Positions 990-61,316 of a DNA stretch of 64,000 bases are shown here, piece by piece (position 1 is the stretch's first letter; each line of letters starts with the position of its first letter). The stretch spans positions 189,137 to 253,136 of the forward strand of contig DASTXE010000004.1 in NCBI GenBank assembly GCA_035765535.1. Reading direction: 5' to 3'. This stretch comes from Rickettsiales bacterium (lineage in GTDB: Bacteria; Pseudomonadota; Alphaproteobacteria; Rickettsiales; JABCZZ01). A program made the position numbers and the translations under genes. The notes below the pieces were generated by a model. It saw only the letters and a list, made by a program, of their open reading frames with translations, ran no database searches and was not told where the DNA came from.

Positions 990-1747
990 ATTTGAGCGGC
1001 ATATCTGCAATCTATAAGTTCGAAATGTCGCGCACATTGCGCACCATCGGCCAGAGCATTGCTTCGCCTGTCATTTCGACGGTACTGTATTTCATCGTGT
1101 TCGGCTCAGCCATCGGCTCGCGCATCCAGGCAGTGGACGGGGTGGCATACGGCGCGTTCATCGTACCCGGCCTCATCATGCTGACCGTGCTCGGCCAGAG
1201 CGTTTCCAACGCATCCTTCGGCATTTACTTCCCGCGCTTCACCGGCACGATTTATGAGATTCTCTCCGCCCCGCTTTCCGTCTTCGAGATCGTGATTGGA
1301 TATGTCGGCGCAGCCGCAAGCAAATCCGTCCTCATCGGCTCCATTGTGCTCGCCACGGCAGGGTTATTTGTGCCGCTGCACATCATGCACCCGTTCTGGG
1401 TTATCTTCTTCCTCGTCATGACGAGTGTCACTTTCAGCCTGCTCGGCTTCATCATCGGCATCTGGGCAGACGGATTCGAGAAACTGCAGCTTATCCCGCT
1501 GCTGGTCATCACACCGCTGACCTTCCTTGGCGGCAGTTTCTATTCCATTAACATGCTACCGCCCTTCTGGCACAGCATCTCGCTACTCAACCCCGTGGTC
1601 TACCTGATCAGCGGCTTCCGCTGGAGTTTCTACGAGCACAGCGATGTCAGTGTGACCGTCAGCATCGCCATGATTGCAACGTTTACTATTGCAGCATTGA
1701 GCGTAATCGCCTGGATCTTCAAGACAGGATATCGCCTAAGAAAATAG
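986..1747 (+). CDS. ABC-2 family transporter permease
   Basis: 253-aa strongly hydrophobic multi-helix ORF, translationally coupled to the upstream ATPase. Length and layout are typical of ABC-2 (YadH-like) permeases. Confidence 0.85.
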
Positions 1748-6017: not shown

Positions 6018-7994
6018 ATGCCTTTATTTAAACATTTTGCACCAAGACTTGTTTCCATAGCAGTAATGCTAATCGGCGCTTATTCCCCAAAAGCAACCGC
6101 AGATAATATCTCATTAACCAGTATCGGCACACTAGGCGGTACAAATTCTTTAGCGTATGGCATTTCTGGTGATGGCAATACAATAGTGGGCTACAGCTAT
6201 ACAGCTGGCGCACATGAGCATGCTTTTTACTGGACCCAGCCAACTGGCATAATTGATTTGGGCACTTTAGGTGGATTAAATTCAGTTGCAGAAGCCGTTT
6301 CAGGTGATGGGAGTGTTATCATTGGGAGGGCAGAAACGGCAGGTATTTCTACGTTTGCCTTTCGCTGGACGCAGGCGACAGGCATGGTGAGCTTGGGCAC
6401 ACTCGGTGGAGACCATTCCTATGCACATGGGGTCTCAGAGGATGGCAGTGTTGTAGTTGGGGAAGCAGACCTTCCAAGTAATTCAGGAAGAGATGCTTTC
6501 CGCTGGACGCAAGGTACAGGCATGGTAGATCTTGGAACCTTAGGCGGAGCTACATCTGTTGCTTCCGGAGTCTCAGCTAATGGAAACATCATAGCAGGCA
6601 CCAGCCTAATATCAGGTAATGGCGCATCTAATGCATTCCGATGGACACAGAGCACAGGTATGGTCAGCCTGGGAACACTTGGCGGGGCAGGTTCCTTTGC
6701 ATCCGGCATATCCGCAGATGGCAGTACAATAGTCGGCACTAGTTATGTTTCTGGCAACTCTGTTGGACATGCTTTTCGCTGGACCCAAAGCACGGGAATG
6801 GAAGATATAGGATCCCTTAACATGCAAAGTTCTTCAGCTAACGCAGTGTCGGCTAACGGAACGGTTATCGTTGGACATTCTTATGTCGATAATGGTGCAA
6901 CTCCTCCACATGCTGTTCGCTGGACACAGAGCACAGGTATGCAGGATATCAATACATTGCTTTCAAATGCCGGCATTACTCCCCCGACACTTCTGGAAAA
7001 TGCGGTTGGAATCTCTGCAAACGGCAATTACATCGCAGTATCTGATGTTAATAATAATGCATATCTCATGGTTTATGCGTTGGGATCTACAGGGATAACC
7101 ACCGCTGAAGCCCAACAACAAGCGACACAGCAGCTGTCAAAGACGATGGAGTCCGGGCAAATCGGCGGGCATAGTATCGCTAATAATTTGCTGGGCATGA
7201 CACAGCCGATTAATAATACGCAATACGTTTACAATGGCGCCATGTTTGGCAGCGCGCTCGGCTATGCAGGCGGACAATGCAGCCATAATGACATAACTAT
7301 TCTAGGGGGGATCGCTTATGGCTCTCAGGAATATCAGAACGTTTCACAAAATGCTGCAACAACGCTAGCGCTCGGAATTCGCAAAGCATTCGAGCTGCCA
7401 GAAAAACCTGCCGTGAAACCCTATGCAGAACTTGGAAGTTGGGTAACGCCAGATGCAGGAATATCCATAAATCGTGATTATATGAATGGCACTGACACCG
7501 CTACAGGCAATGGTGATACCACCGCCACACAATGGGCAGGGTATGGCAAACTCGGCATAGCATGGAATATAAACAACGCTGATCAGTTAAATAGCTGGGG
7601 CAAACTTAGCCGAGAATATGTGCGTTTTGATGGCTACGATGAATCCGCAGTAAGCAGCAATCCTTTCCCCGCTTCCGTAGCGGGCGGCACCAGCCGTATG
7701 GATGTCGCAGAAATCGGCTTGTCATGGACTCACCAGATGGACAAACGTTTCTCTGTAACGACCGCGGCAGCATTCGCGCATTCTTTTGACGTACAGCCGG
7801 ATCTTAATGTGACAGTAGCCCCCTTTGGAAGCACGCGCGCTTCCGGACAAGATTATACATGGGGGGAGTTTGTGCTGCAGCTTGAAACGAAATTAACCGA
7901 TGATGTCTCGTTGAATCTGGCTGCAATCGGTACAGGCGGCGGTGGTATCGAAACTGCCGTACACGGACTTGCAGGCTTTAGCTATCATTTCTAA
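6018..7994 (+). CDS. HAF-repeat autotransporter-like outer-membrane protein
   Basis: 658 aa with an N-terminal signal peptide. Six to seven ~45-aa repeats carry the core AF-[RY]-W-T-Q-x-T-G-M-x-[DS]-L-G-T-L-G-G (HAF-type extracellular repeat). The C-terminal ~270 aa look like a beta-barrel and end in ...GFSYHF. Confidence 0.8.
   Translation: MPLFKHFAPRLVSIAVMLIGAYSPKATADNISLTSIGTLGGTNSLAYGISGDGNTIVGYSYTAGAHEHAFYWTQPTGIIDLGTLGGLNSVAEAVSGDGSVIIGRAETAGISTFAFRWTQATGMVSLGTLGGDHSYAHGVSEDGSVVVGEADLPSNSGRDAFRWTQGTGMVDLGTLGGATSVASGVSANGNIIAGTSLISGNGASNAFRWTQSTGMVSLGTLGGAGSFASGISADGSTIVGTSYVSGNSVGHAFRWTQSTGMEDIGSLNMQSSSANAVSANGTVIVGHSYVDNGATPPHAVRWTQSTGMQDINTLLSNAGITPPTLLENAVGISANGNYIAVSDVNNNAYLMVYALGSTGITTAEAQQQATQQLSKTMESGQIGGHSIANNLLGMTQPINNTQYVYNGAMFGSALGYAGGQCSHNDITILGGIAYGSQEYQNVSQNAATTLALGIRKAFELPEKPAVKPYAELGSWVTPDAGISINRDYMNGTDTATGNGDTTATQWAGYGKLGIAWNINNADQLNSWGKLSREYVRFDGYDESAVSSNPFPASVAGGTSRMDVAEIGLSWTHQMDKRFSVTTAAAFAHSFDVQPDLNVTVAPFGSTRASGQDYTWGEFVLQLETKLTDDVSLNLAAIGTGGGGIETAVHGLAGFSYHF
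6114..6950 (+). repeat. in-frame tandem HAF-type coding repeats (6-7 units of ~132-138 nt)
   Basis: Repeated peptides: EHAFYWTQPTGIIDLGTLGG, TFAFRWTQATGMVSLGTLGG, RDAFRWTQGTGMVDLGTLGG, SNAFRWTQSTGMVSLGTLGG, GHAFRWTQSTGMEDIGSL and PHAVRWTQSTGMQDINTL. Confidence 0.85.
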
Positions 7995-8979: not shown

Positions 8980-9043
8980 GGGGGAAAATGGGAAAGCTTC
9001 TAAAGAGAGCGTAGAATTGCCGCACATTCCGTCCCGAAATCGG
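8980..9043. repeat. direct repeat DR-C, copy 1
   Basis: gggggaaaatgggaaagcttctaaagagagcgtagaattgccgcacattccgtcccgaaatcgg. By hand alignment it matches copy 2 at 56 of 64 columns. Confidence 0.85.
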
Positions 9044-32274: not shown

Positions 32275-35200
32275 CTATCCCACCAAGTCAAGCTGGCCGC
32301 GGGTTAGGCGGTCTATCCAGGCTGCGGTCAGCTTTTCATGCAGAGAGTTCTGCCTCAGGCGTTCATTAAGGAACGGAAACGACACATTGTCAAGTGCCTG
32401 ATCCTGATTAAAGCAGGAATATATGTAGCTTGTTGCACCGGTTACAGGATCGACATGTTGCTGGATACATTGCGCGCAGATCTCTTTCATCATGCATTGC
32501 ATCGGTGAGTTGATGCTGCCGATAGCGACATGTCCCGGTTTGAGATACGGTTTCAATATGCCGCGGCGCGCCGCACCCACTGCCGCCATCATGCGGTCCG
32601 AACCGATAGCGATGATATGATCGACAGCTTGCGTTTTGATGGCCGTTTCGCCGAGCCTGCCTTCCGCATAGGCCGCTATTGCCTGCACGATATTGCCGTA
32701 GAACACCTTGTCGTTCGGCCTGTCCGGCGTGAAATCCGCCTGCTCGTCACATGCCCAGACAATCACGTCGGACGCTTTCTCGATTTCTTCAATCTTGTAA
32801 CGGTCGGTGGATTTGCGGTATCCGGCGAAGTAAAGCACCTTGCAGCCATTCTCACGCGCTGCACGGCCGATGGAGAACAGCACCGCGTTACCCAATCCGC
32901 CGCCCACCAGCATGACGGTTTCGTTTTTCGGAATCTCCGTCGGCGCGCCCGTCGGCCCCATCAGCACGACCGGTTCACCCTTTTTGAGATACGCACAGAG
33001 ATTGGAAGAACCGCCCATTTCCAGCACAATAGCGGAAAGTAGCCCCTGCCCTTTATCCACCCATGCTCCCGTGAGCGCCAGCCCTTCCATTAGCAATGTG
33101 GTATCATATGAAGGTGTGTGGGTGCGCGGAGGAGCACTTTGCGACGACCCCGCAGGGGAATCCGAACGGAGTTCGGATGGGGGCAGCGTGCCCCCCTTAA
33201 CTTTTAGCGCATTCATTTCAAAATTTTGCAACCGGTAGAACTGCCCCGGCTCGAATTGCTTCGCAGCCTGTGGCGCCTTCACGATCACTTCCACTATATT
33301 ATGCGTCAAGCGCACCACATCATGCACCGTCGCACGCAACTGCAGGTTCATGAAGGCAAGGAAAGCTGCATCGGAATGCGGCTCCGCCACTTTTCCCCTT
33401 CTTTTCAATATTCTCGAAACGACCGGATATCCCTGCTTCGCGCTGCCCATCGCCTTCACGACATTGCCTGCGAAAGAAGGATGCAAATCACCAAAGAAAC
33501 TGAGCGCCCTGCCATCCGCTTCCACTGCCATCAGCACCTGCGGTGTTTCAGGTTTGGCAACACGTTCCGGCAAAACCGGCTTGCCTTCATCATCCACTGC
33601 CTGAAAATACTTGCCATGCAAGGTAAGTTTCTCCGGCACTTCACGTTGCAACACGGTATTCGGACTTGTCCCTGCTGCCATCAAGACAGTCCTTGCAGGA
33701 ATCGTTAGGGTGCCATCTTGACTCTTAAATTTCACAGCCGCCGCATGGCCATATTTATCGACTTCCACACCCACCGGCTCAAGATTCTCAACGATACCGA
33801 TGCTTTCTTCCAACGCTTTTTCCACTTCTTCGTGGTTCAGGCGGTAAGACGGCGCATCGATCAAACGCTTGCGATATACCATCTTCACGCCGCCCCAGCT
33901 CTCCAGCAGCCCGGCGACATTGGGATTCGGTTTCTTGCGTTCTTCACGGATGGCCTTCGCATGGGCAATGAACTCTTCGGCAATCTCCGTATCTTCCGCA
34001 CCCCAGCCAAGCCTTGCGCCCTGCTCACCGCGGTCTTTCACGAGCACTTCGTAGCGAGACAGGAATTTCTCCACCTGTATAGGATAATAAGCGAGCGATT
34101 CCGTCGCTGTATCAATCGCCGTCAACCCTCCGCCAATCACCACGATCGGCAGGCGTACCTGCAAATTCGCAATGGAATCCATCTTTGCCGCGCCCGAAAG
34201 CTGCAGCGCCATCAGGAAATCCGAAGCCGTGCGCACACCGCGCGCCAGACCGTTCGGCATATCGATCACGGTCGGCCTGCCCGCACCCATGCACAGTGCA
34301 ATATGGTCAAACCCAAGTTCCCATGCGGAATCGATCGTAATCGTACCGCCAAAACGCACACCGCCGATCAATGCGAACGATGCACGCCGCTCCAGCAACA
34401 GACGGATTACTTTCAAGAAATTCTTATCCCAGCGTACCGTGATGCCATATTCCGCCACGCCACCAAAGCCGTACAATGTACGTTCATCGAGGCGCTCGAA
34501 TAATTCTCTGATATCGCGCACCGGCGCAAAAGCCACACGTTCGCCTGTCTGTGTGACGCCAGAAATTTCCGGCGGCAACGGCTCGATCTTGAGCCCGTCA
34601 ATCCCAACAACCGTATGCCCGTCATTGAGCAAATGATGCGCAAGTGTATAGCCAGCAGGCCCCATGCCCGCCACCAGCACCTTGGAACCGGTTTCAGGCC
34701 TCGGCAACGGACGCTCCAGATTCAGCGGGTTCCAGCGCGTGAGCAGCGAGTAAATCTCAAACCCGTAAGGCAGCTCCAGCACATCCATCAGCGTGCGCGT
34801 TTCGGACTGCGGAATATTGACCGGCTCCTGCTTCTGGTAGATACAGGCTTTCATGCAGTCATTGCAGATGCGGTGCCCCGTGCCCGCGCACATCGGATTG
34901 TCGATCACGACTGTTGCCAACGCGCCGAGCGGAATACCTTCGCTTTTCAGGAAGTTCATCTCGGAAATCTTCTCTTCCAACGGACAGCCGGCGAGCGTAA
35001 TCTCCAGAGAGTTTTTCTTAAAGGAAGTCGTATTGGTTTCCTTATTCGTCTCTTTCATTCCTTTGGAACAGGAATCCTTGCCCTGGTTATGGCACCAGAT
35101 GCAGTAATTGGCTTCGTCTAAGCCCTTGGCCAATGTGACACCGTCATCCGTCAGCGCGAATCCTTCGCGCGCACGGCGATGGTGTGGATCGAGCTTGATG

Positions 35201-35886
35201 ACCGTGACGCCGTCCACCACTTCCGTCTCATACGCCACAAGATTAAGCGGATCGAGCTTGCGCGGCGTCTTAAACAGAATACCTGCCTTATGCTTCTCTT
35301 GCCCTTGCGGCGTGAGTAGGGCCCAGGCGGCGTATTCGGTTGCAATACGGATCGCATCTGCATGCTGTTCCGCTTTATCCAACCACGCCATAACGTTACG
35401 TGAGAACGTCAGCTCAAACACCGTCTCCACCATATGGCCTTCAGGGTGCACCGTATGAGAATCCGAAGGCAGGTCAAATGCTGGCAGGGCGTCCTGCTTC
35501 TTAAACAAGCTTTCAAGCTGCGCACGTAAAGCAGCACCATCTAATTTTGCAGCCTCATCCGGCTTAACGGATTTTGCAGCCTTGCGCTGTACGAACAGGC
35601 GTTTGCAGCTGTAAAGCGGCGCGAGCGTAAAATGCCGCTCCTTGAGCGCAGTCACTTCCGAGCGGATGCCGAACAGTTCTGCAATAAACTCTTCCAGATG
35701 CGGCGCAAGATCGATGATTAATTGGGACTCTTCCTTCAGCACAGGCTTAACGGCACGCGCCGATACCAGCCGATTATGCAGCGCCACATCTCGCTGTTTC
35801 AGCTCTTCGATAAATTTTGTATCCAGTGTTACCAGTCCAGCACGCGTATATAGCTGATCGAAAGTCGCCTCAAATCCGAGTTTCAT
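32275..35886 (-). CDS. 1203-aa fusion oxidoreductase: unknown N-domain + GltD/NfnB-like Fe-S/FAD-NAD(P) module + PyrK/NfnA-like ferredoxin-reductase module
   Basis: Cys clusters [18 protein letters not shown] and [16 protein letters not shown] are followed by [14 protein letters not shown] and [13 protein letters not shown] dinucleotide folds. The C-terminus has FEPGQFYRL ... [10 protein letters not shown] and a Cys-rich tail [12 protein letters not shown]. The start overlaps the cysNC stop (ATGA). Confidence 0.75.
33124..33196. repeat. palindromic element A, copy 2 (inside the oxidoreductase gene, antisense to it)
   Basis: gcgcggaggagcactttgcgacgaccccgcaggggaatccgaacggagttcggatgggggcagcgtgcccccc. 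Same + strand orientation as copy 1. Confidence 0.8.
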
Positions 35887-61181: not shown

Positions 61182-61237
61182 GTTTAGAACGCCTCCGCGT
61201 ATCCTCTCGCTAGGGTGATAAGCATTATTTATGGCAT

Positions 61238-61305
61238 GGAGGAGCGTAGCGACGACCTCTTTAGAGGGGTAGCGTAAGCGAAGGGGCGATCTATGCTCGC
61301 CCCTT
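61238..61305. repeat. palindromic element A, divergent copy 3, including a 9-bp GC hairpin between convergent purK and amtB
   Basis: ggaggagcgtagcgacgacc matches the head of copies 1 and 2. The tail hairpin aaggggcga-tctatgc-tcgcccctt corresponds to their gggggcg...cgccccc hairpin. Confidence 0.55.
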
Positions 61306-61316
61306 ATAATAAACCA

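Follow-up and report, generated by a model that had tools for sequence, protein, structure and literature searches.

The closest described systems to the element considered here are short hairpin-forming repeats that can lie inside genes. Rickettsia palindromic elements (RPE-1 to RPE-10) occur as in-frame insertions translated in several frames (PMC10969869, reviewing Ogata et al. 2000/2002), and Di Nocera described intragenic, in-frame repetitive extragenic palindromes (REPs), also in several frames (Di Nocera 2013, PMC3733652). CGTC-tagged REPs and Ssn-related motifs include RPE-4, RPE-6 and Neisseria dRS3/NTS (PMC3733652, PMC11893778), and Ssn GIY-YIG nucleases cleave single-stranded DNA near CGTC-type hairpin repeats (Chenal 2025, PMC11893778). 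The element itself was found in a 64,000-nt stretch of a Rickettsiales bacterium genome (GenBank assembly GCA_035765535.1, contig DASTXE010000004.1, positions 189,137 to 253,136 of the forward strand), referred to below as the window. It is a multi-hairpin repeat of ~75-85 nt, and one of its copies, copy B, lies in frame within the gene for a large oxidoreductase. Copy B is probably a selfish, non-autonomous repeat of the REP/RPE kind that sits in a permissive loop of the protein, with hairpins that would be kept for the repeat's own propagation.

A repeat family with in-frame copies in unrelated genes

The aligned element has five parts: a 5' module, hairpins H1, H2 and H3, and a 3' flank that is A/T-rich (TTAA, ATAA) in most copies. 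The 5' module has the consensus GGAGGAGCG-N-AGCGACGACC, which contains a mini-hairpin (H0), GC GNA GC, and the family form of the module is a 20-mer, GGAGGAGCGNAGCGACGACC. In copy B and two others the mini-hairpin is swapped for GCA CTT TGC, GTG CTT CAC or a similar sequence, such that GCACTTTGC replaces GCGNAGC in the copy B 20-mer. Profile and covariance-model searches run with filters off found exactly three copies in the window (Table 1). An earlier note on this DNA, made from the sequence alone, had placed a repeat copy at 33124-33196, and reading of the sequence there (...GCGCGGAGGAGCACTTTGCGACGACCCCGCAGGGGAATCCGAACGGAGTTCGGATGGGGGCAGCGTGCCCCCC) bears this out. The covariance model matches copy B at 33118-33205 (90.6 bits, E 1e-22) and copy A, in an ampG-like gene, at 16027-16118 (80.4 bits; sequence of 16037-16109, DTRRSEATTTQGNPDGVGMGMGAARPPY). 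In an nhmmer search with a profile built from both, copies A and B gave E = 8.8e-33 and 4.7e-31, a repeat finder paired them at 88% identity over 42 nt, and the chance expectation for the 40-nt core pattern of the element is 0 matches. Chance similarity is ruled out by the E-values, and a shared protein domain is ruled out as the source of the similarity by the differing reading frames.

Table 1. Positions of the element copies, their parts and the host gene of copy B (window coordinates, except for the last row).
Feature	Position	Strand	Sequence or remark
Host gene of copy B	32275..35886	-	1203-aa RP005-family oxidoreductase, intact, full-length; NF005128
Element copy B	33116..33196	+	inserted DNA 72 nt (33125-33196) or 81 nt (33116-33196), by native-loop alignment
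5' module, copy B	33128..33149	+	GGAGGAGCACTTTGCGACGACC, variant of the family 20-mer
Mini-hairpin H0, copy B	33134-33142	+	GCA CTT TGC
Hairpin H1, copy B	33148..33158	+	CCCC GCA GGGG; 94% of cells paired
Hairpin H2, copy B	33160..33178	+	ATCCGAAC GGA GTTCGGAT; 8-bp stem, GGA triloop
Hairpin H3, copy B	33179..33195	+	GGGGGCA GCG TGCCCCC; 98% of cells paired
Element copy A	16037-16109	+	in ampG-like MFS open reading frame 15388-16728 (+), sense orientation
Exact 20-mer, copy A	16037-16056		
Element copy C	61228-61313	+	diverged, intergenic; covariance model 37.4 bits, E 2e-8
Exact 20-mer, copy C	61238-61257		
H3-like hairpin, copy C	61283-61303		
Element copy in locus L122	6873-6958		in open reading frame 6443-7420, coproporphyrinogen III oxidase (HemF); in-frame, third frame, EERSDD...GGSVLP

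Copy C, which the earlier note had not listed, lacks H2 and sits between convergent purK-like and amt-like open reading frames (ORFs). The sequences upstream of the window copies are ATGGATACGC, GTGGGTGCGC and TTTATGGCAT. All three copies are on the + strand, and the GC skew is negative in nearly all 4-kb bins, an agreement that is not significant with n=3. Single-stranded-DNA transposition shows a replication-strand bias.

Nine full copies are available from six sources, together with shorter relatives in another alphaproteobacterial metagenome-assembled genome (MAG). At least five copies are in the Alphaproteobacteria MAG UR_AS_metabat.55 (loci L117, L096 and L027), one is in a JGI metagenome contig (L122) and one in a Logan contig (L123). 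Four of the nine lie within ORFs, in three different frames or senses. The translated insert in HemF of L122 reads ...GTPEERSDDLAGGRARSVSGGSVLPTIKHW..., and the L123 copy falls in a 165-aa hypothetical ORF (P0121) in the same sense as copy B. The remaining full copies are intergenic, in both orientations relative to the neighbouring genes, and are often clustered or head-to-head in the manner of REPs; L117 holds one head-to-head pair (L117b/L117d), and the window copies are singletons. The locus of a relative (L124; 70% identity by BLASTP) has no clear copy, with a best match of 15.9 bits. Two canonical CGTC/Ssn-related hairpin repeats were also seen in L117, at 1490-1517 (+), TGTCATTCCCGCGCAGGCGGGAATCCAT, and 1551-1578 (-), CGTCATCCCGGCGAAGGCCGGGATCCAT. 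They share one intergenic cluster with two element copies, suggesting that different hairpin-repeat families accumulate at the same spots.

The gene that holds copy B encodes an RP005_N domain, a glutamate-synthase-beta-like Pyr_redox_2 domain and a C-terminal NfnA/PyrK-like FAD/NAD module. Copy B has the same orientation as the ampG copy and is translated from the minus strand, as the earlier note had recognized; the inserted peptide follows FYRLQNFE and includes GGTLPPS. The closest relatives of the oxidoreductase are 75% identical by BLASTP and 78% identical in a multiple alignment, and its nearest orthologues come from MAGs labelled Alphaproteobacteria or Rickettsiales bacterium. None of the 36 orthologues in the alignment has the peptide. 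At the site of insertion, the nearest orthologues have NALK(V/L)x and 7-9 further residues before TTLAMEGL, and the shortest orthologue loops have ~3 residues. The bounds of the insert were drawn from comparison of orthologue DNA and protein, and the two possible lengths, 72 and 81 nt, are both multiples of three.

An AlphaFold2 model of the last 387 residues (mean predicted local distance difference test score (pLDDT) 84, predicted template-modelling score 0.82) adopts the NfnA/PyrK fold, matching 5jca_S at E 2e-21 with a target-normalised TM-score of 0.86. The model shows the insert as coil, with block pLDDT 55-63, between strands 78-81 and 112-115. Copy B is thus predicted to sit in a flexible surface loop between two beta-strands of the FAD-binding barrel. 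In a solved NfnA structure (4ylf_A), the aligned PGQF strand and the strand that follows it are ~7 residues apart, compared with 48 in the window protein.

The insertion site is hypervariable, with 0 to ~35 extra residues across lineages. About a dozen lineages carry unrelated segments of 10-35 residues at the same loop (residues ~897-928 of the window protein). In the one lineage checked at the DNA level, the insert of orthologue P0098 is a different palindromic repeat, GAGTGTAGAGTG...CACTCCACACTC, with a minimum free energy of -44.5 kcal/mol. The same palindromic repeat is found again 3.6 kb away, within an amidase gene (L126, 12719-12817 and 16403-16478). Given that an unrelated palindromic repeat occupies the same loop, palindromic repeats appear to have landed there recurrently. 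This matters for annotation, since peptides of this kind should not be taken for domains, and the RP005/NfnA-like barrel loop is in effect a naturally validated insertion-tolerant site for protein engineering. The Pfam domains PF04480 and PF18741, the endonuclease-like DUF559 and REase_MTES_1575, are present as additions in two other orthologues of the oxidoreductase, P0062 (1368 aa) and P0070 (1318 aa); this suggests that a nuclease gene has been fused to or inserted in this oxidoreductase in some lineages.

The ORF that holds copy A encodes an AmpG-family MFS transporter (TIGR00901, E 4e-149). Copy A is in frame and in sense (peptide RRSEATT...), in the variable central loop between transmembrane helices 6 and 7 that joins the two six-helix halves. 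Most of the AmpG homologues listed match as two stretches flanking query residues 208-245, and the loop is short in most of 21 aligned homologues, which lack copy A. Copy A also has a 6-nt tandem duplication, GGGGAT GGGGAT (16086-16091), between H2 and H3, which preserves the ampG frame and is translated as GMGMG. The AmpG, RP005-like oxidoreductase and HemF proteins are all intact around the insert.

These data support the earlier proposal that one repeated element is translated in opposite coding senses in two genes. The related statement that the element is stop-free in a frame of both strands is correct as a description and carries little weight, given that 86% of random window 72-mers are likewise. 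A stronger form holds for copies A and B, which are open in all six frames, a property of only 1.3% of random 72-mers from the window and 6.8% of shuffles with matched composition; this openness is largely due to their G+C content of 70-74%. Copy C has stops in four frames.

Given that the four ORF copies are read in three frames or senses, the peptide is best regarded as a by-product of the DNA. It could in principle be a selected functional addition, such as a new interaction loop, since the insert leaves the frame open and the rest of the gene is well conserved. This is very improbable: elsewhere the element is translated in other frames or senses, no orthologue has the peptide, the model shows it as low-confidence coil, and it was found in just one other protein among 5.8 billion.

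Covariation of the hairpin stems

The earlier note had listed three compensatory pairs between copies A and B, and all three can be read directly from the sequence. The H2 stems, ATCCCGAC/GTCGGGAT in copy A and ATCCGAAC/GTTCGGAT in copy B, differ at two pairs (C-G to G-C and G-C to A-T), and the H3 stems, GGGGGCG/CGCCCCC and GGGGGCA/TGCCCCC, differ at one (G-C to A-T). A substitution that had been missed, CCAC vs CCCC, breaks one pair in H1 of copy A; the small hairpins H0 and H1 had likewise gone unlisted.

Covariation was assessed by aligning the nine full copies to the covariance model and counting 22 stem pairs, with 500 shuffles for comparison. Standard pairs make up 89.7% of cells; shuffling the 3' partners brings this to 78.1%, and sliding them by 1-3 columns brings it to 43-53%. 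Fourteen of the 22 pairs are altered on both sides, compared with 7.3 +/- 1.5 expected, and 0/500 shuffles match the observed paired cells, both-side pairs, both-side cells or covariation score. Hence the covariation seen between two copies exceeds chance in the larger set, and the hairpins are real. The changes on both sides affect 7 of the 8 pairs in H2 and 4 pairs in H3. The H2 stem reads ATCCCGAC, ATCCGAAC, ATTTACGC, AATTTTGC, GTCCACGT or TCGGC depending on the copy, with a complementary 3' arm each time, a length of 5-8 bp, and a C-G closing pair around the GGA triloop. The mini-hairpin H0 also covaries between copies (GC/GC, GCA/TGC, GTG/CAC), and H1 has two T-G wobbles in copies other than B.

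Five of the nine full copies have GANTC sites (GAATC, GAGTC) at the H2 base, with window positions 33157-33163, 16064-16070 and 16076-16081. GANTC is the CcrM methylation motif of Alphaproteobacteria. The sites may simply be inherited by descent and not be meaningful.

Strong stem covariation is one of the observations that would favour selection of the structure itself at the locus, whether as RNA or DNA, through mRNA stability, translation pausing or local regulation, with the structure being kept inside coding sequence. Moreover, folding of both strands beats shuffles (z about -2.3), and G-T pairs outnumber A-C pairs on the + strand (8 vs 2), a weak hint that the + strand as written may be the folding strand. 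The element, however, is in sense in ampG, antisense in the oxidoreductase and in both orientations intergenically; it has no Rfam match, and no U-tract follows H3. Selection at the locus is also hard to reconcile with orthologues that function without the insert, and overall it is improbable.

The earlier note had gone further in arguing that the structure is maintained even within coding DNA, a claim that the present data do not support. Copies A and B are paralogous, their divergence may predate insertion, and covariation among paralogues is silent on maintenance afterwards. No orthologous copy of the element at the same site was found in databases. The H3 of copy B is the family majority form, and that of copy A is a minority variant also present in L117d. 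Most simply, the paired differences between copies A and B would have been inherited from different source copies and would predate insertion.

Quasipalindrome-templated mutation is known in bacteria, and the paired changes could be a mechanical by-product of this kind, with intrastrand template switching copying a mutation from one arm to the other. The H2 stem differs at most positions and in almost every copy, while its loop and flanks are nearly constant, a pattern that fits an elevated, arm-symmetric mutation rate. Template switching leaves unexplained the strong conservation of the GGA and GCG loops and of the unpaired 5' module, and some stems keep G-T wobbles or mismatches that have not been corrected. 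It is an unlikely source of the covariation.

If copy B is instead a selfish repeat, as is probable, its history might be reconstructed as follows. An element made of a conserved 5' module and three short G+C-rich hairpins would have spread within the uncultured alphaproteobacterial genome, and copy B would have landed between two beta-strands of the FAD-binding barrel in the NfnA/PyrK-like C-terminal module. The insertion would have survived because its length is a multiple of three, its G+C-rich core is stop-free in all frames, and the surface loop is permissive; the added Gly/Pro/Ser-rich peptide of 24-27 residues would be a passenger without a function of its own. Compensatory changes would conserve the hairpins because propagation of the element depends on them. 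By analogy with REP-RAYT or CGTC-repeat-Ssn systems, the mobilising or processing enzyme would most likely read single-stranded DNA hairpins. The triloops are conserved and the element has no preferred orientation relative to transcription, which is more in keeping with a role at the DNA level than with one as RNA.

Several points weigh against this interpretation. Mobility is deduced solely from the distribution of copies, and the covariation counts come from a small set of nine related sequences whose alignment was fitted to the structure before pairs were counted. The element is rare in public data: the JGI metagenome scan, whose pattern of 24 specified bases was too strict, gave one locus, and the search of 5.8 billion proteins, which used six translated frames concatenated as the query and did not return the window's own proteins, gave one further protein. 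The ends of the element (..GGAGGAGC and ..GCCCCCC) are not inverted, so there are no terminal inverted repeats, and no target-site duplication is visible when the filled site is compared with orthologue DNA. A crude motif scan of six-frame translations of the window and nine related loci did not find a GIY-YIG Ssn gene; no transposase or nuclease partner was identified, although no search for RAYT was made. The CGTC/Ssn-related motif, written as the pattern HGTCWYN(0-2)YYVSBRHN(0-5)WNVSBRGN(0-2)RNCYNB, matches no copy of the element when searched as a regular expression. Elsewhere in the window it has one match, compared with a shuffled mean of 0.46, and is thus not enriched.

These hairpins show clean covariation in what is probably mobile DNA and not a conventional RNA gene, which is a caution for RNA discovery based on covariation.

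The 20-mer beyond this element

The 20-mer that forms the 5' module recurs far outside the element. A scan of a genome collection gave noisy matches, those listed being mostly from high-G+C genomes, and the counts of loci that follow are counts among the matches listed. There, multi-copy repeats whose flanks differ from genome to genome begin with the exact 20-mer in many bacterial phyla and a haloarchaeon. The 20-mer is present at 14 or more loci of a Polyangiaceae MAG, where contigs break at the 20-mer, and in three other Myxococcota MAGs. At least 18 loci were found in one genome of Catenuloplanes, and other actinomycetes with matches are Actinoplanes and Gordonia. In Halorarius (Halobacteria) the 20-mer occurs in tandem copies with a 76-nt period, and further matches are in Cyanobium/Synechococcus, Bacteroidota, Patescibacteria and others. 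One Myxococcales family shares its order of parts with the window element: the module, a CCNCGCGGG hairpin, a variable hairpin and a hairpin whose loop is GCG(T).

In viral contigs the 20-mer was found once in each of 29 stretches, with at least 12 families of flanks and a G+C content of 36-66% in the stretches fetched. A reversed-sequence control of equal composition was found once. BLAST aligned 19 nt of the motif to intergenic positions that carry no annotated feature in two phage genomes, one of a Pseudomonas jumbo phage and one of a marine member of the Autographiviridae; in the Pseudomonas phage the twentieth base is T. No constant neighbour gene was found in phages. As judged from their translations, the neighbours resemble a terminase, a ThyX-like protein, a sigma-like protein and hypothetical proteins.

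Only the N of the triloop varies among 106 unique instances of the 20-mer (A 51, C 26, G 22, T 7). RNAfold pairs G1-C19, G4-C16, G7-C13 and C8-G12, leaving 2x2 internal loops of G-A/A-G, from which we infer that the 20-mer may fold into a hairpin held together by tandem G-A pairs, with GNA as its triloop. The proposed pairs do not covary: freeing positions 8-12, 4-16 or 5-15 adds only 1-5 matches per alternative combination seen, and several of these extra matches are near-identical runs that resemble protein-coding sequence. That the freed positions add so few matches indicates that it is the exact sequence of the 20-mer that recurs. The idea that the 20-mer is the loop of a covarying closing stem was likewise rejected, as there is no extension in 84% of the 106 instances, compared with 76% of shuffled pairings.

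No annotation or Rfam family was found for the 20-mer, which recurs across distant bacteria, archaea and phages, nor does any paper in the library searched print it. Tentatively, the 5' module could be an undescribed, sequence-specific motif shared across domains, and the window element one lineage's composite built on it. The distribution suggests that the 20-mer is read by widespread machinery, such as a single-stranded-DNA nuclease, a reader of priming- or promoter-type hairpins, or a horizontally mobile enzyme. If this proves true, the motif would offer a new handle on how small hairpin repeats are recognized and spread.

A different view of the same data is that the host exploits a DNA site around the 20-mer, with an extruded hairpin serving in protein binding, priming, promoter function or nuclease action, and that the copies inside genes are incidental. 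In favour of such a site, the exact 20-mer occurs far more often than the control, in repeat families from many phyla that are unrelated to one another and in at least 12 phage contexts, and the RNAfold pairs fit a compact hairpin with a GNA triloop. This view is improbable: copy B has a modified 20-mer, and no function, partner or constant neighbour gene was found.

Some other repeats in the window were noted in passing. Positions 6218-6949 hold a tandem coding repeat of four to five units, spaced at 135-141 nt (..GCTTTYCGCTGGAC..GGCAC.CT.GG.GG..), which resembles a repeat-domain protein, and 9252-10050 has repeats with a period of ~249 nt. A 59-nt sequence occurs twice, at 8980-9038 and 11823-11881, with 86% identity and a separation of 2.8 kb.

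Comparison with known repeat families

There are clear parallels with RPEs. Both kinds of element are short, dispersed, hairpin-forming and alphaproteobacterial, and both are found between genes and in frame in unrelated housekeeping genes. Both add a peptide at tolerated surface positions, and neither has a known transposase. The window element differs in being ~75-85 nt long, compared with ~100-150 nt for RPEs, and in having four local hairpins behind a conserved unpaired module, where an RPE is one long palindrome. Its host is outside the genus Rickettsia, being an uncultured alphaproteobacterium with a G+C content of ~52% in the window. Homology to RPEs at the sequence level was not detected: an NCBIfam scan of both host proteins and both inserted peptides found no repeat-element family, and the peptides matched nothing at E <= 1. 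The element extends beyond Rickettsia, to free-living or uncultured Alphaproteobacteria, the phenomenon of palindromic repeats that insert in permissive loops of essential proteins and are translated in whichever frame they land.

The similarity to CGTC REPs lies in a predominantly alphaproteobacterial distribution, in the in-frame intragenic copies documented for CGTC REPs, and in the form of H2, an 8-bp stem that starts with A-T and T-A and has a short loop. H2 in copies A and B is ATCC.../...GGAT with a GGA loop (CGGAG if the closing pair is opened), and the other copies start with GA/GT; CGTC REPs have a stem of 8-9 bp and a loop of 4-5 nt. In CGTC REPs a tag (CGTC, TGTC or CCTC) directly precedes the stem on its 5' side, and there is a CCA-like tail. 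No CGTC tag stands beside H2, whose neighbouring bases are GGGGA and GGGG as read on the + strand, or CCCC and TCC as read on the - strand. CGTC occurs only as the reverse complement of a GACG that lies in the 5' module, 15 nt from H2.

GTAG REPs and REPINs resemble the element in being G+C-rich hairpin repeats found between convergent genes, with occasional head-to-head doublets, and recognition by an enzyme predicts hairpin covariation in both. The element differs in having multiple hairpins and in occurring mostly as singletons. The GTAG tag is on none of the window copies, being present only in L096 and L117c, and CCGTAGG is upstream of only some related copies. Miniature inverted-repeat transposable elements (Coxiella QMITE, ERIC and Nezha) are likewise small, non-autonomous, structured and able to fuse with ORFs, but they are A+T-rich, in contrast to the G+C-rich element.

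In Rfam 15 no family matches the element; only tRNAs reach the gathering score, and permissive scans gave matches at chance level. BLAST searches against plasmids and a literature search for the sequence strings returned nothing relevant. Given that membership of a known family fails wherever it could be tested, the element is taken to be a new family of REP/RPE-like hairpin repeats, and thus a new member of an already known type of repeat.

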